Source of the DNA: a virus
Direction: 5' to 3' (one strand)
Virus genome (UHGV): UHGV-2171516
Length of the DNA: 10,665 nucleotides
Position numbers and translations under genes: made by a program. A model generated the notes under the pieces. That model searched no databases and was not told the origin of the DNA. It saw only the letters and a list, made by a program, of their open reading frames with translations. Positions 1,738-9,821 of the stretch are shown piece by piece; position 1 is the stretch's first letter, and each line of letters opens with the position of its first letter.

Positions 1738-2706
1738 ATGAAAACAGCAGATGCAGCGAAAGGCCGCTGGCCTGAAATATTAGAGCACTTCGGTCTGCCG
1801 CCGATAACCGGAAAAAATCACTTCAAGGGTGAATGCCCGGTATGCGGTGCACGTGGCAAGTTCCGAATTGACGACCGCGACGGTGCAGGAACGTGGATCT
1901 GTGTATGTGGTAGTGGCGATGGTATGAAACTTGTCACCCTGACACAGGCGAAGCCATTTAACGAGATTTGTACCGAAATAGACCGCCTGATCGGTAATGA
2001 TTACCAACGGGTTAAAATCCCGGTAACCAGCAGCGCCACCAGCTTACGCAAACGGGTATTGAGCAAGTTTTCAAAACTGGAGGCACTGCGTGGTACATCC
2101 GGCGCAGCGTATCTTAATTCTCGTGGAATATTCAGTCTTCCTGCTGAGGCGATCCGGTTCAATGCCAGGCAGAGACACAACGGGAGTGTGTTCCAGTCTC
2201 TTTATTCACTTGCTACGGACGATAAAGGGGAGTTGTGCTATCTGCACCAGACTCTGCTTGATGGTGATAAAAAAGCAGATATCGGTAGCAGTGCAAAGCG
2301 CCTCAAATCCCTGCAGGAAGATAACTATTTGGATCACGCTCGTTCTGTAGCTATCCGCATGTTTCCTGTCGCCAGCACTCTGGGTATCGCCGAAGGCATC
2401 GAAACAGCGCTGTCAGCGCACCAGATTTATAACGTGAACACCTGGGCAACCATTAACAGCGGCTTTATGAAAAAGTTTCGCGTACCAGCTGGTGTTCTGC
2501 ACCTGATTATTTTTGCCGACCGTGACGAGAACAGCGCCACCGGGCTGGCTGCGGCTTGCGAATGTGCTCATGCCAATCTGATGGCAAAGAATGACCTGCA
2601 GCGCGTGAGCGTGTACTGGCCGGATCACGATGATTTCAACAATATGCTCATGAACGGTGATCAGGTTCGAGAGCTGGTTTTCCATAAGAAAAAGGCGGTT
2701 GCGTAA
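1738..2706 (+). CDS. Phage DNA primase (P4-alpha-like zinc-binding ribbon plus Toprim domain)
   Basis: 322-aa ORF. N-terminal CPVCG...CVCG zinc ribbon, Toprim signatures AEGIETALS and FADRDEN (DxD). ATG 1738 follows the helicase stop directly (TAAgATG), suggesting translational coupling. Confidence 0.75.
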   Translation: MKTADAAKGRWPEILEHFGLPPITGKNHFKGECPVCGARGKFRIDDRDGAGTWICVCGSGDGMKLVTLTQAKPFNEICTEIDRLIGNDYQRVKIPVTSSATSLRKRVLSKFSKLEALRGTSGAAYLNSRGIFSLPAEAIRFNARQRHNGSVFQSLYSLATDDKGELCYLHQTLLDGDKKADIGSSAKRLKSLQEDNYLDHARSVAIRMFPVASTLGIAEGIETALSAHQIYNVNTWATINSGFMKKFRVPAGVLHLIIFADRDENSATGLAAACECAHANLMAKNDLQRVSVYWPDHDDFNNMLMNGDQVRELVFHKKKAVA

Positions 2707-3563
2707 TGCGTACTGATAATAACGAACATAAAGCACTATTCACCATCCCGACGGCAGCGTACAGCTCCGCCCTCGCAAACATCAAGCCCCTGCCAGAGCA
2801 ACGGAGAATCACCGGGCATAAGCAGACTGATGCTTATCTTTGGGTGCTGGAGGTTATCCGTCTGAACGAACCCGCACATCTGGATGCTGCTGAGGCTGCG
2901 CTGGTGAAAATTAAAATTTCCCCAAAAGAGGCTCAGGAACGCTATTCGCGTTATCTGCTGGCGAATGGTTACGAACCTTTCCAGGTTGCGTTCGGCATCA
3001 TCGGCATGGATAACCCTGCGCAGGTTATCAGGAACGCCCGGGAGAACATCAAAAAAGCGGCATCAGTCAGGGCTACGTTTGGTAGCTATGAAGCAGCGCT
3101 CGAAGATGTGGAAGCAGAGCGGGTCATCAGGTCTTCCCAGAAATTTATCAACGATCATCTCTGGGGCTGGACTGCGGCAGAGAAAAAAGCCGGAAGCATT
3201 GGCGGCAGCCGCATGAACGAAATTGATGAACAGCGTCGGGCATTTGTTGATGGATATCGCGATGTGCTGCCTGAGCCTTATACGCTGTCTGATGTTGTTC
3301 GCGAGTTCGTTTACTGGGACTGGCTCTACAGTGTTCGCCACACTGCAACTAAAGAACAGGGCGATGAGTTTGGTTACTCTGAGCATCACGAATCGGTATA
3401 TGACCGCGAGCGCTACCTTGAAAAATTGCTGGCAACCATCAAACCGGTGACACGCGCTGAAGCCGTGGAGGTGTGCCGCTGGTTTCTGGCAAGTGGTAAG
3501 GGTGAATGCATGGAAGACGACGGTGCAGCGGTCATTCTCAATCTGGTTGGGGAGTGTGAATAA
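2706..3563 (+). CDS. Hypothetical phage protein, function unknown (sits where the nin region lies in lambdoid phages)
   Basis: 285-aa ORF in codon-like frame. Start overlaps the primase stop (TAATG) and its stop overlaps the next start, so it is part of the coupled operon. No motif I recognise. Confidence 0.6.
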   Translation: MRTDNNEHKALFTIPTAAYSSALANIKPLPEQRRITGHKQTDAYLWVLEVIRLNEPAHLDAAEAALVKIKISPKEAQERYSRYLLANGYEPFQVAFGIIGMDNPAQVIRNARENIKKAASVRATFGSYEAALEDVEAERVIRSSQKFINDHLWGWTAAEKKAGSIGGSRMNEIDEQRRAFVDGYRDVLPEPYTLSDVVREFVYWDWLYSVRHTATKEQGDEFGYSEHHESVYDRERYLEKLLATIKPVTRAEAVEVCRWFLASGKGECMEDDGAAVILNLVGECE

Positions 3564-4378
3564 TGAAGCTTGAGGCATCGCTAAAATACTTCAGTCCTCA
3601 GGGAATGTATATCGGCGACGATGTGAAAGGAACCTCTCCGGAACGTCTTACAGGCACCGATGTTATGGCGGCTATTGGTACCACCAGTAATCGTGAGCGG
3701 TTTGGCCTGGCGGCCTTCTTCGGGAAGGCCGGTATCAGCAAGACTGATGAGCAGATGGCAGTCCAGGCGCTGGCGCGTCACGCGATGGAAATTGCACCGA
3801 AGAATGTGCGTAAAGCAGCTGGTGGTGAATTTGGCTGGTGTATGCTGGTACTGGCTCAGTTTGCTTTTGCTGAGTATTCCCGATCGGCGGCCACCAGCGT
3901 AACATGCCATAGTTGCAGTGGTACCGGACTAACACCCCGTAAGCAGGTCATTCGTAAGGTTTCATACCCATGGGGTAAAGCACCATATTGGGCCAGTCGC
4001 TCCCGTGCTGTTCGACCGTCAGACTGGGAAAGATGGACAGAGGTAACGGAAGTTGTACCAGTCGTTTGCGATGTATGTAAAGGGAAGGGAGTGATAAGTG
4101 CCAGGTGTCGTTGTGGTGGAAAGGGAGAGGTACTGGACCGCAAAGCCACAAGCGAGCGTGGTGTGCCAGTGTTTAAAATCTGCGAGCGTTGTAGTGGAAA
4201 GGGATTCGTATCTATCAAATCAGCTAATGTTCATCGAGCTATTCAAATATACATTCCCGATCTGCACCAGTCTTCATGGTCGCGCAATTGGAAACCATTC
4301 TATGAAAAATTGATTGATATCCTGCATCAAGGTGAGCGGCATGCGGCTAGAGAATTTGAGAAGGCAACGAGTTACTGA
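3563..4378 (+). CDS. Q: Putative late antiterminator Q (phage 82 / QuuQ-like size class) with four CxxCxGxG zinc-finger repeats
   Basis: 271-aa ORF. Last gene before a promoter-like element, a strong terminator and the tRNA cluster, which is the Q position in lambdoid and Stx phages. Four repeats CHSCSGTG, CDVCKGKG, CRCGGKG, CERCSGKG. GGGGAG SD upstream; start overlaps the previous stop. Family assignment is by position and size, not sequence recall. Confidence 0.55.
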   Translation: MKLEASLKYFSPQGMYIGDDVKGTSPERLTGTDVMAAIGTTSNRERFGLAAFFGKAGISKTDEQMAVQALARHAMEIAPKNVRKAAGGEFGWCMLVLAQFAFAEYSRSAATSVTCHSCSGTGLTPRKQVIRKVSYPWGKAPYWASRSRAVRPSDWERWTEVTEVVPVVCDVCKGKGVISARCRCGGKGEVLDRKATSERGVPVFKICERCSGKGFVSIKSANVHRAIQIYIPDLHQSSWSRNWKPFYEKLIDILHQGERHAAREFEKATSY

Positions 4379-4417: not shown

Positions 4418-4447
4418 TTGACTTTGCATAAAATTGTCTTGTATCAT
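4418..4447 (+). promoter_or_regulatory. Candidate late promoter (pR'-like): -35 TTGACT 4418-4423, -10 TATCAT 4442-4447, 18-bp spacer
   Basis: Sigma70-like hexamers directly downstream of the Q-like gene, about 40 nt upstream of a strong intrinsic terminator. This matches the lambdoid pR'-tR' arrangement. Not validated. Confidence 0.35.
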
Positions 4448-4488
4448 TTTAATTATGGGGTTTAGCGCCAATATAAAAATTAACACGG

Positions 4489-4512
4489 AACCCGCTTTAT
4501 AGCGGGTTTTTT
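4489..4512. terminator. Rho-independent terminator (tR'-like), usable from both directions
   Basis: 8-bp stem AACCCGCT / AGCGGGTT with TTAT loop, followed by a T6 run on the + strand. It lies 2 nt beyond the stop of the minus-strand gene 4515-5459, so it can also end that transcript. Confidence 0.65.
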
Positions 4513-4514
4513 AA

Positions 4515-5459
4515 TTATGGTAAATTTTCCATAAATTTCTTAAATAGTAATTTGTCTTTATTGCTTACAGATTTCTGAATGTTAAGTAATGCACGTAAAG
4601 GTTTAAGGTTTTCTCTTGTTGCAAAAACCCTGGATTTTTCTAAGCGTTCCTGAGCAAAGTTAAAGCGTTCTCTTAATCTTGAAACCTTTATTCCAAAAGA
4701 CAACACCTCTCTTTCAGTCAATTCATCTGGGGTACATTTGTTTAATTTTTCCAGAACCATTTTTATATCTCTTTCATAAAGAAGAGCAATGTCATAATCA
4801 TTCAGCAAGCATTCAGGGTATTGTATTACCCCAATAAGTTCATTTACGGTTTTGTTTTTGTTGTTAACTTTTGGAGCTGAGTCGCTTGTTTGCTTCTGGG
4901 ACATAATTTCGTCCAGTTCTAGCTCTTCTGTATTTTTTAATCTTGAGCGGAAAACACGCCCATCACCAGAAGCAGCCATCTTTTTCAATGTTTGATAAGC
5001 CGCACGCCCGATGATTTTAGGGTCTTTCATGTCAAGTATTCTATGAGCAACCTCAGTTAGTGATGGACGCCCAGATTCGATTTTGGCTTTGAGTTTGTAA
5101 TAGCTAAAAATATCATCTTTTGCCTCTTTAAGTGCGGTAAGTAAGCGATGGAAATCTGCTTTTCGGCAAAGTTCTATTGCTAAATTATCAAATGCTATAC
5201 CAAAAACATTAGTTCCACATACATGGCCGATATTCGTTTCAAATCCTTCTTTCGTAACTACCAGAAATCCCTTTTTATGCCCTTTGCGGCAATTTGATTT
5301 TCCACATGGAATTTCCTCTGGTAGGTCATCGTAGTAACCAAAAACGTCAGAGAGTTGCTGATCATTTAACTCTAATTTGGGATAGTAAGACTCTCTCGCC
5401 TGAATTTCTGCCCAGTCATTCACGCGAATAAAACTTTCGCCATTCTTGAGAAAAATCAT
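4515..5459 (-). CDS. Hypothetical 314-aa protein on the opposite strand; AT-rich moron, candidate accessory or defence gene
   Basis: Long ORF antisense to the phage backbone, visibly AT-rich against GC-richer flanks. Good SD AAGGA about 5 nt before the ATG (reverse complement of 5457-5470). Flanked by an AT-rich upstream region 5460-5580 and the terminator at 4489-4512. Cysteine/histidine cluster CGKSNCRKGH...HVCG; no family recognised. Confidence 0.7.
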   Translation of the reverse strand: MIFLKNGESFIRVNDWAEIQARESYYPKLELNDQQLSDVFGYYDDLPEEIPCGKSNCRKGHKKGFLVVTKEGFETNIGHVCGTNVFGIAFDNLAIELCRKADFHRLLTALKEAKDDIFSYYKLKAKIESGRPSLTEVAHRILDMKDPKIIGRAAYQTLKKMAASGDGRVFRSRLKNTEELELDEIMSQKQTSDSAPKVNNKNKTVNELIGVIQYPECLLNDYDIALLYERDIKMVLEKLNKCTPDELTEREVLSFGIKVSRLRERFNFAQERLEKSRVFATRENLKPLRALLNIQKSVSNKDKLLFKKFMENLP

Positions 5460-5583
5460 ACTCGTCCTTACTGTGGTTAGATTTAAAGCATATCCATTTG
5501 ATATTTAATCACTATTCTTTTTGTATTTCACCTAAAACGATTTGTTTTCATGTTTAATGTGACTGATGTATCATCACTCCCCC

Positions 5584-5656
5584 AGCCATTTTAGCTAAAT
5601 GATGAGAGCGAGTTATAATCGCCAGGTCGCTGGTTCAAATCCAGCAAGGGCCACCA
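5584..5656 (+). tRNA. tRNA-Ile-like (ileX/ileZ-like) with intact 3' half but degenerate 5' acceptor and D arm; possible pseudogene or fragment
   Basis: 3' portion ATAATCGCCAGGTCGCTGGTTCAAATCCAGCAAGGGCCACCA closely resembles the E. coli tRNA-Ile2 3' half as I recall it (T arm GCTGG/CCAGC, acceptor 3' strand AAGGGCC, discriminator A, CCA). The upstream sequence does not supply a matching GGCCCTT acceptor strand or a clean D stem. The anticodon loop reads GTTATAA (UAU) in my fold. Confidence 0.4.
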
Positions 5657-5663
5657 TCACATA

Positions 5664-5740
5664 CCGCCATTAGCTCATCAGGATAGAGCGCCAGCCTTCG
5701 AAGCTGGTTGCGCGGGGTTCGAGTCCTCGATGGCGGTCCA
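5664..5740 (+). tRNA. tRNA-Arg (anticodon UCG)
   Basis: Hand-folded cloverleaf: acceptor CCGCCAT/ATGGCGG, D stem GCTC/GAGC, anticodon stem CCAGC/GCTGG with loop CTTCGAA, T stem CGGGG/CCTCG (one G-U) with loop TTCGAGT, discriminator T plus CCA. 77 nt. Confidence 0.75.
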
Positions 5741-5754
5741 TTTATCGGCATTCT

Positions 5755-5831
5755 GCGTTGTTAGCTCAGCCGGACAGAGCAATTGCCTTCTAAGCAATCG
5801 GTCACTGGTTCGACTCCAGTACAACGCGCCA
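5755..5831 (+). tRNA. tRNA-Arg (anticodon UCU, argU/argO-like)
   Basis: Hand-folded cloverleaf: acceptor GCGTTGT/ACAACGC, D stem GCTC/GAGC, anticodon stem ATTGC/GCAAT with loop CTTCTAA, T stem ACTGG/CCAGT with loop TTCGACT, discriminator G plus CCA. 77 nt; resembles E. coli argU. Confidence 0.85.
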
Positions 5832-5846
5832 CACTTATTTTTTTCT

Positions 5847-5868
5847 GGCTTGCTTCGGCGGGCCTTTT
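5847..5868 (+). terminator. Weak intrinsic terminator-like hairpin after the tRNA cluster
   Basis: Stem GGCTTGC / GCGGGCC (two G-U pairs) with TTCG tetraloop, then TTTT. Confidence 0.3.
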
Positions 5869-5896
5869 AGTTGCTGAAAAAGAAAACACCAGGTGG

Positions 5897-5930
5897 TTAG
5901 CAGGGTATCCGTTACCCTGCTAAATTTTTA
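5897..5930 (+). terminator. Strong rho-independent terminator
   Basis: Perfect 11-bp stem TTAGCAGGGTA / TACCCTGCTAA with 5-nt loop TCCGT, followed by A then TTTTT. Confidence 0.65.
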
Positions 5931-6144
5931 AATACCTCACAATTCAGCAAGTTGATGATTGTCTGGCTGTCAGGGATTTTGTTAAAAAAATCCTGCATGG
6001 TGAATCCCCCTGAGCGGAGGGGCGACTGGTGACGGTATAATCTCTGATTATCAAAACGAGAATGACGCGGGTTTAGTGGCACCGGGCTGAACTCACCGGG
6101 AGGCACCCGGCACCATGTGCATGATGATACAGATACGCGGCTTT

Positions 6145-6171
6145 AGCCCCTCTCCGGAGGGGCTTTCTTGT
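6145..6171 (+). terminator. Terminator-like hairpin
   Basis: 8-bp GC-rich stem AGCCCCTC / GAGGGGCT with TCCG tetraloop, then TTCTTGT. Confidence 0.45.
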
Positions 6172-6175
6172 GGGC

Positions 6176-6202
6176 AAAAAAAAAGCCCGAGTGGGTTCGG
6201 GC
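6176..6202 (-). terminator. Rho-independent terminator oriented for the minus strand
   Basis: On the + strand an A9 run followed by stem GCCCGA / TCGGGC with loop GTGGGT. On the minus strand this is a hairpin followed by T9. Confidence 0.5.
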
Positions 6203-6257
6203 AACAGCATGAGATATACATTTTTATAATCGAATGGATTTTAACCAGAATTCATAA

Positions 6258-6284
6258 GGCTGCGCAACTGCGTGGCCTTTTTCG
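6258..6284 (+). terminator. Terminator-like hairpin upstream of nanS-p
   Basis: Stem GGCUGC... / ...GCGUGGCC (includes G-U pairs) followed by TTTTTCGTATT. Confidence 0.4.
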
Positions 6285-6384
6285 TATTGCGGGCTGTAGT
6301 TTTCCTCCTGCCATTGTCCTGTAACTTCCGGACTTCAGCCCGCCCCTCATCTGACTCACAACATTATCCCGACCGGGAGGATTC

Positions 6385-8367
6385 ATGACATTTAAACACT
6401 ACGATGTGGTCAGGGCGGCGTCGCCGTCAGACCTTGCGGAGCGACTGACACAAAAACTGAAGGAGGGGTGGCAGCCATTTGGCAGTCCGGTGGCCATCAC
6501 GCCCTATACCCTGATGCAGGCCATTGCGGCGGAAGGTGATGTCACCACACCGGTGGTGGTGCAACCGTCGGGTGATGGTGGCGCTGTTATCAGCACCACC
6601 AGCGAACCGGAATATTACTTTGTCATTGCGCTGGCCGGGCAGTCCAACTCGATGTCTTTTGGCGAGGGGCTGCCGCTGCCGGATACGTATGATCGTCCTG
6701 ACCCGCGTATTAAGCAACTGGCGCGTCGCAGCACGGTGACACCGGGCGGTGCGGCCTGTGCATATAACGACATTATTCCTGCAGACCATTGTCTGCATGA
6801 TGTGCAGGACGTGAGTAATCTGAATCACCCGAAAGCAGACCTCAATAAAGGGCAGTATGGCTGTGTGGGGCATGCCCTGCATGTGGCCAAAAAACTGCTG
6901 CCGTTTATGCCTGCCCGTGCGGGGATCCTTCTTGTCCCGTGTGGACGTGGCGATTCGGGATTTACTGCGGGAGCAGAGGGCGCGTTTAATGAGGCGTCGG
7001 GTGCGACAGCGGGCTCTTCCCTGTGGGGGGTGGATAAACCGTTGTATCGTGACCTGGTCAGCAGAACGCGTGCAGCCCTGAAGAAAAATCCGAAAAACGT
7101 GCTGTTGTCGGTGATCTGGATGCAGGGGGAAAAAGATGTCAGTTCGGGGAGACATGTAGAGCACAATGCACTTTTTCTTGCCATGGTAAATAAATACCGT
7201 GCAGACCTGGCAGATATTGCAGACCAGTGTATTGGCGGGACAACGTCCGGCGTCCCGTGGATTTGCGGTGACACCACGTACGACTGGAAGGCGAAGTATG
7301 CAGTGCAGTATGAGGCGGTTTACGGAGGCTATAAAGGCAAGGCGGCGCAGAATATTCACTTTGTGCCGTTGATGACGGATGAGCATGGTGCGAATGTGCC
7401 GACAAACGAGCCGTCAGAAGATCCGGACATTATCACGGCGGGATACTATGGTGCCGCGTCACGCAGTAATGGTAACTGGACGACAGCCGATCGTAAAACG
7501 CACTTCAGCTCCTGGGCGCGAAGAGGCATTGTTTCAGATCGGCTGGCAGGAGAGATACTGGTGCGAGCCGGGCGTTTGCTGCCGTTCCTGAGCGGGCAGT
7601 CTGCACCGCTGGCGACCACGCCAGCCTCCACGGGGGATGCACAGTCTGGCTCTGCGGGTCCGACGCAACAGCAGGGTGCAGGTACTTCTGCAGGCGGTCA
7701 TACTGAAGCCGTAACAAGAATGGTGGCCGGATATGATGCGAACAGTGGCAGTGGTGTATGGACAGAGCAGCAGTGGAATGCGTCCGGTGGTAAAGGCACT
7801 GTGACGGATGACAGTGGCAGGAAGGCGCTGCGACTGGAAAAACAGCCGGGTAAACTGACCTCCTGGAAGATGTTCCGTACTGTTGCGGTGGAGGAGGCAA
7901 AAAATCTTCTCAGTAAGGGGGGGGAAATTGCCGTGCGGTTTAAGATCCCGGAGGGTGTCGAACTGGTTAACGGTCAGTTTGTCTTTGGTCTGTACTGGCC
8001 GGTGTCGCAGTGGGCGTCAGGCGCGACAGCAAACAGCATGCTGGCGTCCTTCTTCCTTCAGACGGATGCATCAAATCTGAATCTGATGTACCACAAGGGG
8101 GAGTCGAATGCGCAACTGGGCACATTTGGGGCATTTGACCATAACTGGCATACAGTTGTTTTCCGCTTTGCGGGAAATAACAGCGAAAAAGTGGTGCCGG
8201 TGATTGATGATGCAGAGCAGTCTGCGTTTGACCTTGTGATGTGGACAAATGATGGCTTTACAGCAGATACGCTGACGCTGACAGATATCACGGGGGCAAA
8301 AGCGACGTATCCGGTACTGCTTGATACGGTCACAGTCAAAGTTAACGAAAGCCGGGCATCATCATAA
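6385..8367 (+). CDS. nanS-p: Prophage-encoded sialate (9-O-acetyl-N-acetylneuraminate) O-acetylesterase, NanS-p / YjhS-like (SGNH/SASA esterase with N-terminal DUF1737-like and C-terminal lectin-like domains)
   Basis: 660-aa ORF. N-terminal MTFKHYDVV... segment typical of phage NanS proteins, SASA-type block ALAGQSNSMSFGEG, Gly/Ser/Gln-rich linker, long C-terminal domain. SD GGGAGG at 6375-6380. Same place as the yjhS homologue between toxin locus and lysis genes in Stx phages. Confidence 0.85.
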   Translation: MTFKHYDVVRAASPSDLAERLTQKLKEGWQPFGSPVAITPYTLMQAIAAEGDVTTPVVVQPSGDGGAVISTTSEPEYYFVIALAGQSNSMSFGEGLPLPDTYDRPDPRIKQLARRSTVTPGGAACAYNDIIPADHCLHDVQDVSNLNHPKADLNKGQYGCVGHALHVAKKLLPFMPARAGILLVPCGRGDSGFTAGAEGAFNEASGATAGSSLWGVDKPLYRDLVSRTRAALKKNPKNVLLSVIWMQGEKDVSSGRHVEHNALFLAMVNKYRADLADIADQCIGGTTSGVPWICGDTTYDWKAKYAVQYEAVYGGYKGKAAQNIHFVPLMTDEHGANVPTNEPSEDPDIITAGYYGAASRSNGNWTTADRKTHFSSWARRGIVSDRLAGEILVRAGRLLPFLSGQSAPLATTPASTGDAQSGSAGPTQQQGAGTSAGGHTEAVTRMVAGYDANSGSGVWTEQQWNASGGKGTVTDDSGRKALRLEKQPGKLTSWKMFRTVAVEEAKNLLSKGGEIAVRFKIPEGVELVNGQFVFGLYWPVSQWASGATANSMLASFFLQTDASNLNLMYHKGESNAQLGTFGAFDHNWHTVVFRFAGNNSEKVVPVIDDAEQSAFDLVMWTNDGFTADTLTLTDITGAKATYPVLLDTVTVKVNESRASS

Positions 8368-9017: not shown

Positions 9018-9027
9018 CGGTGAGTCA

Positions 9028-9060
9028 GGGTCATCAGTAAAGAGCTGGTGGCCCTTTTGT
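9028..9060 (+). terminator. Terminator-like hairpin upstream of the holin
   Basis: 10-bp stem GGGTCATCAG / CTGGTGGCCC (two G-U pairs) with loop TAAAGAG, followed by TTTTGTTGTTG. Confidence 0.4.
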
Positions 9061-9092: not shown

Positions 9093-9308
9093 ATGTACCA
9101 GATGGAAAAAATCACAACAGGTGTGTCATACACCACGTCAGCGGTGGGAACGGGCTACTGGTTCCTGCAGTTGCTGGACAGGGTTTCCCCGTCTCAGTGG
9201 GCGGCAATAGGCGTGCTGGGGAGTCTGCTGTTTGGGCTGCTGACATATCTGACGAACCTGTATTTCAAGATTAAAGAAGACCGGCGTAAGGCGGCGCGGG
9301 GAGAGTAG
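9093..9308 (+). CDS. S: Class II holin (pinholin), phage 21 S-like, with dual-start motif
   Basis: 71-aa ORF strongly resembling the phage 21 S holin as I recall it ([21 protein letters not shown]...[21 protein letters not shown]). Met1 and Met4 (MYQMEK) fit the antiholin/holin dual start. SD GGGAG upstream. Confidence 0.9.
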
Positions 9309-9311
9309 ACG

Positions 9312-9821
9312 ATGAATAAACAATACGAACTGGTTGTTAAAGGGATAAATAATTACCCGGATAAGATTACTGTTACTGTAGCGCTGGAAACGGGTGGGTA
9401 TACGTCACTGTTGTTGCCAAATGTGGTGATTGATCTTGATCGTGTTGAAGGTGCCCCGCTGGAGTTTTACGAAGCTGAGGCGAAAAAGAAGGCGAAGCAG
9501 TTTTTCATGGATATTGCTGCCGGGTTATGTGAAGGGGATGAACAGTCACAGGAAAAGTGCCTTTGTTCCGAAGATCGGTATACCATACAAATTAACAATG
9601 CATATAACACGATACTGTCAGAAAAAGATGATATCGAATCACGCATTGAAAAACTGGAGAATTGCGTCGTTGAACTGAATAAAAAACTGTCGACGCTGAT
9701 GCCTTCTGAAGATGCAAAAAAACGCCGCGATGAGCAGTTCGCGGCGTTTTACGATTATTGCATTGAAGTTACTCGCAGGAATTTTGTGAAGGCTTTTGAG
9801 GAGAGTAAATCTCTTCAGTAA
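9312..9821 (+). CDS. Hypothetical 169-aa soluble protein inserted between holin and endolysin
   Basis: ATG 4 nt after the holin stop, with SD GGGGAGAG (9298-9305) lying inside the holin 3' end. AT-richer than the flanking lysis genes. No transmembrane segment; coiled-coil-like stretch SEKDDIESRIEKLENCVVELNKKL; no family recognised. Confidence 0.6.
   Translation: MNKQYELVVKGINNYPDKITVTVALETGGYTSLLLPNVVIDLDRVEGAPLEFYEAEAKKKAKQFFMDIAAGLCEGDEQSQEKCLCSEDRYTIQINNAYNTILSEKDDIESRIEKLENCVVELNKKLSTLMPSEDAKKRRDEQFAAFYDYCIEVTRRNFVKAFEESKSLQ

Follow-up and report, generated by a model that had tools for sequence, protein, structure and literature searches.

Small RNA genes in the late-operon leader of a toxin-free lambdoid prophage, between the tRNA genes and nanS-p

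Organization of the locus

The DNA considered here is a stretch of 10,665 nucleotides from the virus genome UHGV-2171516 (the window, meaning the whole stretch at its full length). It spans the passage from early to late genes in an Escherichia coli lambdoid prophage, and our concern is the interval of 553 bases (5832-6384) that separates its transfer RNA (tRNA) genes from nanS-p, the gene of a sialate O-acetylesterase. From the letters alone, a preliminary description had taken this interval for the toxin slot of a Shiga toxin (Stx)-converting phage, empty of its cargo and filled by a terminator array. The gene order behind that reading, with the antiterminator gene Q followed by tRNAs, nanS-p and holin, is confirmed by gene, tRNA and domain calls. 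Two elements had been missed, a minus-strand gene of 314 amino acids (aa) between Q and the tRNAs (4515-5459) and a degenerate third tRNA, the first in order (5585-5653). The interval and the gene that it precedes are made up as follows.

5847-5868, plus strand: terminator of the tRNA operon and left border of the toxin position (terminator scan, folding)
5869-5936, plus strand: slot of 68 base pairs (bp), with the last 9 codons and stop of a DUF3927 mini-open reading frame (5871-5900) and a hairpin (5897-5930)
5937-6175, plus strand: small RNA (sRNA) gene of the STnc100/EcOnc27/PasD family (Rfam match 5966-6175), with its own terminator at 6145-6171
6176-6232, minus strand: short anti-sRNA gene of the AsxR/AgvB family, facing the STnc100 gene and ending in its own terminator (stem 6202-6185, then a U run)
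6256-6284, plus strand: conserved terminator between the sRNA pair and nanS-p (10-bp stem and T run)
6285-6384, plus strand: conserved 5' untranslated region (UTR) of nanS-p with the Shine-Dalgarno sequence GGGAGG (alignment and consensus fold)
6385-8367, plus strand: nanS-p type sialate O-acetylesterase, 660 aa (Pfam DUF1737, SASA and DUF6645)

A prophage of the commensal E. coli strain SCU-106 matches the window from 5400 to 6698 at 97.3%, and at 98.6% over the interval alone; its counterpart of nanS-p is annotated as a SASA family carbohydrate esterase. From Q through the first tRNA, phage vB_EcoS-611R1 is 99.9% identical.

An STnc100-family sRNA gene

Against Rfam family RF02076 (STnc100, also known as EcOnc27 or sRNA103), the plus-strand sRNA scores 158.7 bits where the gathering score is 47, with model positions 1-206 of 206 covered and E = 2e-36. 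A consensus fold of ten STnc100 copies with RNAalifold, two of them from Salmonella phage Fels-1, holds 34 base pairs, 13 of which show compensatory changes, including pairs in the closing helix and in the terminator. Thus the secondary structure is conserved and ends in an intrinsic terminator, which in the window folds at -17.2 kcal/mol. Moreover, an STnc100 match of 141-208 bits adjoins nanS-p on its upstream side in all six E. coli comparison loci. The family can occur more than once in a single late leader: the NCTC9112 prophage has two copies, about 74% alike (locus L006, 3452-3750 and 4001-4447), and Fels-1 has three, one of them partial (locus L014, 5108-5321, 5522-5644 and 6645-6863).

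Relatives of this RNA are described in the literature. In Stx2 phages STnc100 lies 75 nucleotides (nt) downstream of stx2 (PMC12370729), and it overlaps EcOnc27 (PMC12711010), which in prophage Sp5 is an Hfq-bound RNA of ~235/247 nt (PMC4104026). The STnc100 homologues of strain EDL933 are expressed, with copy STnc100_4 confirmed by northern blot (PMC5331693), and expression is likewise reported for the homologues in strain Sakai (PMC4104026). By analogy with these homologues, the sRNAs of the window would be expressed, bind Hfq and act as sponges. In NC_002695.2, the Sakai coordinates that Tree et al. (2014) print for EcOnc27 and AsxR in their supplement fall ~138 nt off and hit the wrong sequence when used directly; we re-anchored them by the northern probe and the AsxR sequence (Sakai NC_002695.2, 1266000-1270000). 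The size of EcOnc27 would place the 5' end near a conserved TCACAATTCAG block, at an estimated window position of about 5930-5941.

Several candidates for the start of this RNA were set aside. Two upstream promoter candidates, TTGAYN at 5952-5957 and an extended -10 resembling TGTTAAATA near 5926-5934, both lack conservation in BP-4795 and in Fels-1. The TATAAT at 6036-6041, which the preliminary description had placed correctly, can be ruled out as an sRNA promoter, since it is not conserved, with no counterpart in 933W or PhiR5_1, and lies inside a structured RNA, in a part that is variable and unpaired. Nor is it isolated, as had been thought; a second copy lies at 6225-6230. The notion that STnc100 is the pR'-tR' transcript of this type of Q was also rejected, because a separate promoter-terminator pair, conserved with Fels-1, lies directly after Q.

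A probable convergent anti-sRNA gene

On the opposite strand, family RF02703 (AsxR) is matched at 6180-6232 with 63.0 bits, equal to its gathering score of 63, and RF02702 (AgvB) reaches 43.4 bits, below its gathering score of 56. The terminators of the sRNA and the anti-sRNA stand back to back, at 6145-6171 and 6176-6202, and the conserved 3' region of the anti-sRNA (~42 nt), which includes the terminator, converges on an EcOnc27-type sRNA, as expected of this family. The 3' part, TATCTCATGCTGTTGCCCGAACCCACTCGGGCTTTT, is the 3' part of EcOnc03 as printed in the supplement of Tree et al. The 5' variable region specific to AsxR was not found: the first 19 nt depart from the AsxR consensus at 4 positions. 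It is this region of AsxR that is reported to pair with the terminator loop of FnrS. When the allele in the window was paired with FnrS in RNAduplex, the result was no better than for shuffles, and the same holds for genuine AsxR, so that this outcome counts neither for nor against such pairing. Among the Stx phages, 933W carries an AsxR (88 bits) and BP-4795 an AgvB-type RNA by the same Rfam models.

The anti-sRNA position (window 6176-6255) is occupied by one of two unrelated cassettes, with flanking terminators common to both. The AsxR/EcOnc03-like cassette is present in the window, 933W, MSB1_4I, NCTC9112 and BP-4795. A longer, different one, which matches no Rfam family at gathering score, is present in phi296 (locus L002, about 5556-5650) and PhiR5_1.

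Downstream of the pair, the terminator at 6256-6284 (-15.7 kcal/mol) is present in all seven aligned loci, and its stem probably overlaps the presumed -35 element of the anti-sRNA promoter on the opposite strand. Conservation is higher in the 5' UTR of nanS-p that follows than in the sRNA region. A long hairpin is predicted in this UTR, with about 6289-6302 paired to 6330-6344, for which the alignment offers no covariation; a single-base change in BP-4795 (TTCAG to TACAG) closes the only mismatch in the stem. A small predicted hairpin partly covers the Shine-Dalgarno sequence.

Hairpins, repeats and reading frames in the interval

A terminator scan recovered all five hairpins of the preliminary description where it had put them: four plus-strand stems, each followed by a T-rich tail (5847-5864, 5897-5923, 6145-6164 and 6256-6279), and one minus-strand stem (6202-6185) followed by a run of 9 T. 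Terminator-like sites are in excess here, with 6 between 5400 and 6500 against 1.3 +/- 1.2 in shuffles, and the hairpins of the interval have folding energies between -11.1 and -17.8 kcal/mol and z scores between -3.0 and -5.3. What is not supported is their reading as a stacked array, since the hairpins end separate units: the tRNA operon, a mini-gene remnant and each of the two sRNAs, with a conserved terminator ahead of nanS-p as the fifth.

A repeated CGGAGGGG motif had also been pointed out. There are indeed two copies, the second at 6155-6162 as described and the first at 6015-6022 rather than 6014-6021, and the repeat is really the 9-mer CGGAGGGGC. Five further 8-mers are also repeated within the 553 bases, and a repeated 8-mer is thus not unusual there. 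Both copies form the 3' arms of two conserved STnc100 helices in the consensus fold.

The statement that the interval holds no credible open reading frame (ORF) stands. A Pfam search of its small ORFs gave no match, and of the four ORFs compared for conservation, the three longest do not stay open in relatives, where stops or frameshifts disrupt them. The fourth, an antisense ORF of 44 aa (6252-6386), is kept in five of seven relatives and overlaps the conserved nanS-p 5' UTR.

The toxin position and its scar

Aligned with the Stx phages 933W and BP-4795, the flanks of the interval coincide with toxin-locus borders. The tRNAs and their terminator (5590-5868) are 90% identical to 933W sequence whose end lies 53 nt short of stxA2, and the terminator at 5847-5868 is homologous to the 933W feature annotated as 'possible rho-independent terminator upstream of the stx genes'. 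On the other side, 5937-6492 aligns with 933W from 46 nt past the stxB2 stop at 80% identity, and the sequence from 5928 onward aligns with BP-4795 from 45 nt past the stxB1 stop. The stx junctions thus map to 5868 and to 5928-5937, and from these flank alignments the stx1 and stx2 cassettes replace only the 68 bases at 5869-5936. Hence the Stx-type layout proposed in the preliminary description stands, with a slot that measures 68 bases; the other ~450 bases are conserved module.

The slot shows no similarity to the stx flanks. Searches of the locus with StxA1, StxB1, StxA2 and StxB2 (tblastn) and with both cassettes including their promoters (blastn-short) returned chance matches only (E of at least 0.2), and the remnants of an stx promoter or Fur box that had been anticipated were not found by them. 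From 5870 the slot is homologous to the toxin-free prophages MSB1_4I, PhiR5_1 and NCTC9112. The residues LLKKKTPGG* in the window correspond to PLLKKKTPDC*, the end of an intact, annotated DUF3927 gene of 24 aa in strain MSB1_4I, and the hairpin that follows this remnant folds at -17.8 kcal/mol. Because of this homology to toxin-free prophages, and of the DUF3927 remnant followed by its own hairpin, the slot is a recombination scar. The joint between tRNA terminator and DUF3927 remnant is rare: of 5426 complete E. coli genomes searched, just 2 gave a full-query match. The exchangeable cargo position is confined to the narrow gap between tRNA terminator and sRNA, and is filled by stx1, stx2, a DUF3927 mini-gene or a scar.

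The module itself is common. It was found in 1157 of the same 5426 genomes, a collection rich in Shiga toxin-producing E. coli, for a total of 3068 places (median 3 per genome); the stxB2-junction sequence was found in 534 genomes and the stxB1-junction sequence in 349. From the 3068 places set against these 534 and 349 genomes, ~70% of module copies are without adjacent toxin genes.

The upstream late leader and flanking genes

The features between the replication genes and the interval are given here in order.

78-1736: helicase
1738-2706: primase
2706-3563: hypothetical gene
3563-4378, plus strand: Q-type antiterminator, 271 aa (Pfam PF03589 Antiterm, 171 bits; phrog_127, anti-termination protein Q-like)
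4418-4447, plus strand: candidate late promoter pR', TTGACT-18-TATCAT, followed by a -10-like TAATTATGGGG
4487-4516, plus strand: candidate terminator tR' directly after pR' (hairpin 4487-4510, 10-bp stem and T run)
4515-5459, minus strand: AT-rich gene, 314 aa
5545-5574, plus strand: promoter-like site upstream of the tRNAs, TTTTCA-18-TATCAT, aligned with 'pT' of 933W
5585-5653, plus strand: degenerate ileZ-like pseudo-tRNA (Rfam tRNA, 32.6 bits; ARAGORN makes no call)
5664-5740 and 5755-5831, plus strand: tRNA-Arg(TCG) and tRNA-Arg(TCT), the argN and argO of Stx2 phages, both intact (ARAGORN; Rfam 56 and 68 bits)

The candidate pR' is the best promoter-like site in the window, with 10 of 12 matches, and the tR' hairpin folds at -14.8 kcal/mol (z = -5.9). 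Promoter and terminator lie immediately 3' of the PF03589 Q gene, the arrangement of a lambda-type late operon. A block after Q (window 4418-4516; Fels-1 locus L014, 4355-4470) is conserved as TTGACTTTGCATAAA.TTGTC.TGTAT and then TAATTATGGGG, with diverging flanks. To judge from its sequence, it looks like the pR'/qut/tR' unit of this PF03589 Q lineage, which would give a transcript of ~60 nt.

In the alignment with 933W, the site at 5545-5574 falls on a region annotated there as a putative tRNA promoter. Compared with ileZ of 933W, the ileZ-like copy has a 4-nt deletion in the anticodon stem, a change of CAT to TAT, and altered 5' acceptor bases; in phage 611R1 it is annotated as tRNA-Pseudo.

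The actual protein-coding cargo (moron) of the late-operon leader is the 314-aa gene, whose GC content is 31-40% against about 52-55% in the flanks. Its product belongs to phrog_7003, with function unassigned in PHROG, and has no sequence match in Pfam, NCBIfam, PADLOC or the PDB; 76 homologues likewise gave no Pfam or PADLOC match. The family has 550 representatives at 50% clustering; C52, C57 and C81 are invariant and H61 is nearly so. An AlphaFold2 model of the protein has a confidence (pLDDT) of 94.2, and structural comparison of this model found no structural relative.

On the 3' side, nanS-p is followed by DUF1378, DUF826, a P21-type holin and then a DUF1327 protein. The holin gene (9093-9308) is preceded by a strong terminator hairpin with a 12-bp stem (9027-9055, plus strand), placed after the DUF826 ORF. 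In prophages of enteropathogenic E. coli, the region between esterase and holin holds the sRNAs PasA and PasC (2026 preprint, bioRxiv 10.64898/2026.05.13.724894). The gene after the holin (9312-9821) encodes the DUF1327 protein and not an endolysin, likewise in phage PhiR5_1; in the SCU-106 prophage, otherwise 97% identical, the holin is followed by a lysozyme gene.

Interpretation of the interval

We think it very probable that the interval is the standard late-operon leader of nanS-p-carrying lambdoid prophages, composed of small, independently terminated units. Read from left to right, these would be the tRNA operon terminator, the 68-bp scar, the ~235-nt STnc100 sRNA on the plus strand, an anti-sRNA of ~55 nt on the minus strand, the terminator at 6256-6284, and the 5' UTR of nanS-p. 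A lysogen would make the tRNAs and both sRNAs from promoters of their own and end them at their own terminators, and these same terminators would stop transcription from entering nanS-p or the lysis genes. Upon induction, Q would load onto RNA polymerase at pR' (4418-4447), and the modified polymerase would read through tR' (4487-4510) and every later terminator, crossing the 314-aa cargo gene antisense on its way. Read-through by Q is known from lambda, phage 82 and 933W, is generic to lambdoid phages, and is plausible in this one. The position of the scar is occupied in other phages by stx1, stx2, an intact DUF3927 mini-gene, or almost nothing.

From this perspective the preliminary description was sound as observation, with its Stx-type layout and its hairpins, and went astray in taking the interval for an empty place with a dedicated terminator stack: ~450 of the bases outside the slot belong to a conserved module that has two known sRNA families and is shared with Stx phages. 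An sRNA filling the interval was the outcome that it had itself named as contrary to its reading, and this is what the STnc100 and AsxR-type matches represent. Its suggestion that the terminators make the late genes dependent on Q is reasonable, if as a by-product of closely packed small genes, and tR', the first terminator that Q would have to overcome, lies outside the interval. The finding is ordinary, because the interval is mostly a widely shared prophage sRNA piece and only 68 bases mark the toxin position. The convergent sRNA pair is already known; it was described in 2014 and both RNAs have Rfam families. What the locus offers is a correction, namely that intergenic 'terminator arrays' which follow the tRNAs or the toxin genes and precede nanS-p in lambdoid prophages are to be annotated as sRNA genes, and an example of a toxin-free prophage with the same regulatory RNA families as Stx phages.

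Several points weigh against this interpretation. That Q reads through 1.9 kb, with an antisense gene on the way, is assumed on the model of lambda and 933W, and the expression of the sRNAs at this locus is likewise taken from homologues. The folding energy of the whole STnc100 sRNA in the window is not exceptional (z = -1.6), and the candidate -35/-10 elements for its plus-strand promoter are weak or not shared by BP-4795 and Fels-1. The AsxR match just reaches its cut-off, near-identical copies in two comparison loci (L005 and L006) fall below it, and the 5' seed of the anti-sRNA differs from that of AsxR.

The reading closest to the preliminary description is that of an Stx phage which lost its toxin genes, or of an empty cargo site, in which a purpose-built stack of terminators makes the late genes strictly dependent on Q. 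It can draw on the coincidence of the flanks with both the stx1 and the stx2 borders, the 90% identity of the tRNA block and terminator to 933W, the excess of terminator-like sites (6 where 1.3 are expected), and the existence of toxin-free Traversvirus relatives such as phi296, in which the tRNAs are followed directly by the module. However, no stx coding, promoter or Fur-box remnant was detected in the searches above, the slot holds the 3' end of a different mini-gene, and four of the five hairpins are simply the 3' ends of the tRNA operon, the DUF3927 remnant and the two sRNAs. Moreover, no deposited phage, of the Stx type or otherwise, exceeds about 83% identity to the module, where toxin-free E. 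coli prophages reach 94-98.6%; the Q gene, replication genes and pR' are like those of Fels-1 and not those of 933W; and most E. coli copies of the module lack an adjacent stx. We regard this reading as very improbable, and the window is probably not a direct toxin-minus descendant of a known Stx phage. Equally improbable, in our judgment, is that the sRNA-like sequences are decayed, unexpressed relics and the interval a passive insulator and 5' leader of nanS-p. The borderline AsxR score and the lack of a strong promoter consensus for either sRNA fit such decay, as does the state of the adjoining ileZ-like tRNA, from which some decay in this region follows. Set against this are an STnc100 match of full length with all its helices intact, compensatory changes across the copies, an anti-sRNA 3' part identical to that of the expressed EcOnc03, and the expression of homologues in EDL933 (PMC5331693) and Sakai (PMC4104026).

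The interval might instead encode one or more small proteins, with candidates such as ORFs of 69 aa (6115-6324) and 64 aa (5912-6106, minus strand). ORFs of 42-69 aa are present, small ORFs are annotated at this place in BP-4795, phi296 and P13374, and ribosome footprints have been reported on some EDL933 STnc100 copies (PMC5331693). Yet the lack of Pfam matches, the stops and indels that break the frames in most relatives, and conserved blocks that track RNA helices and not reading frames leave this idea with hardly any likelihood. A different proposal concerns what the site is loaded with: the 314-aa gene may be a host-benefit or defence factor expressed in the lysogen and shut off by Q-driven antisense transcription, and the anti-sRNA, an allele with a 5' region unlike all printed AsxR/EcOnc03 sequences and an AgvB score below threshold, may sponge another host sRNA. 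This we consider unlikely, if less so than the three readings just weighed. We thus favor the standard late-operon leader with its small, separately terminated genes.

Comparison with known systems

Tree et al. described in 2014 convergent sRNA genes downstream of the Q-antiterminated PR', between a moron coding sequence and a conserved phage ORF (PMC4104026). In Sp5 these are EcOnc27 and EcOnc02/AsxR (54 nt), 3' of stx2B, and the same organization recurs in the toxin-free Sakai prophages Sp3, 4, 9, 10, 11, 15 and 17 (PMC4104026). The window shares with Sp5 and 933W a plus-strand STnc100-type sRNA, its terminator, a minus-strand anti-sRNA, the conserved terminator and nanS-p, with the same tRNA block and terminator upstream, and is alignable over 5937-6492. 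Both Stx-type flanks are thus present, ileZ-argN-argO with the terminator on one side, where the ileZ copy is degenerate, and the sRNA module, nanS-p and holin on the other. Unlike Sp5 and 933W, however, the window lacks stx2AB (tblastn and blastn-short found no stxA or stxB between tRNA block and nanS-p), with 68 bp in place of about 1340 bp, and its module is about 80% identical to theirs. The Q genes also differ, those of 933W and phi24B being annotated as pfam06530 and that of the window being PF03589.

Closer likenesses are found among toxin-free prophages. In the SCU-106 and NCTC9112 prophages the module is 94-98.6% identical and stands directly upstream of the esterase gene, although in NCTC9112 a second, divergent copy precedes it. 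From 5870 the window continues like MSB1_4I (85.7%) and PhiR5_1 (81.4%), with the difference that small ORFs precede the module in both, among them the intact DUF3927 mini-gene of MSB1_4I. In prophages of enteropathogenic E. coli, the common arrangement is pasD (STnc100-related), esterase, pasA/C and holin (bioRxiv 10.64898/2026.05.13.724894). There, as here, the STnc100-related RNA adjoins the esterase gene upstream and a PF03589-type Q is a conserved neighbor, whereas the locus in the window scores as STnc100 proper.

Fels-1 resembles the window in the order helicase, primase, hypothetical gene and Q, with 77.6% DNA identity in the Q gene, in the conserved pR' block, and in a hairpin and T run of different sequence at the position of tR'. 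It also has a minus-strand moron after tR' and STnc100 copies before the lysis genes and holin. In contrast to the window, Fels-1 has no annotated stx, tRNA or esterase, no anti-sRNA or tRNA at Rfam gathering score, another moron gene, and three STnc100 copies. The Traversvirus phages phi296 (vB_EcoP_phi296), TL-2011a and PPwrbA, which are without stx, share with the window the tRNAs, the terminator, a short spacer, the STnc100 module and NanS. It is these toxin-negative phages that are the true 'empty slot' relatives of the Stx2 phages. They differ from the window in a spacer of about 35 nt unrelated to the DUF3927 remnant, in the other cassette at the anti-sRNA position, and in an identity of 82%.

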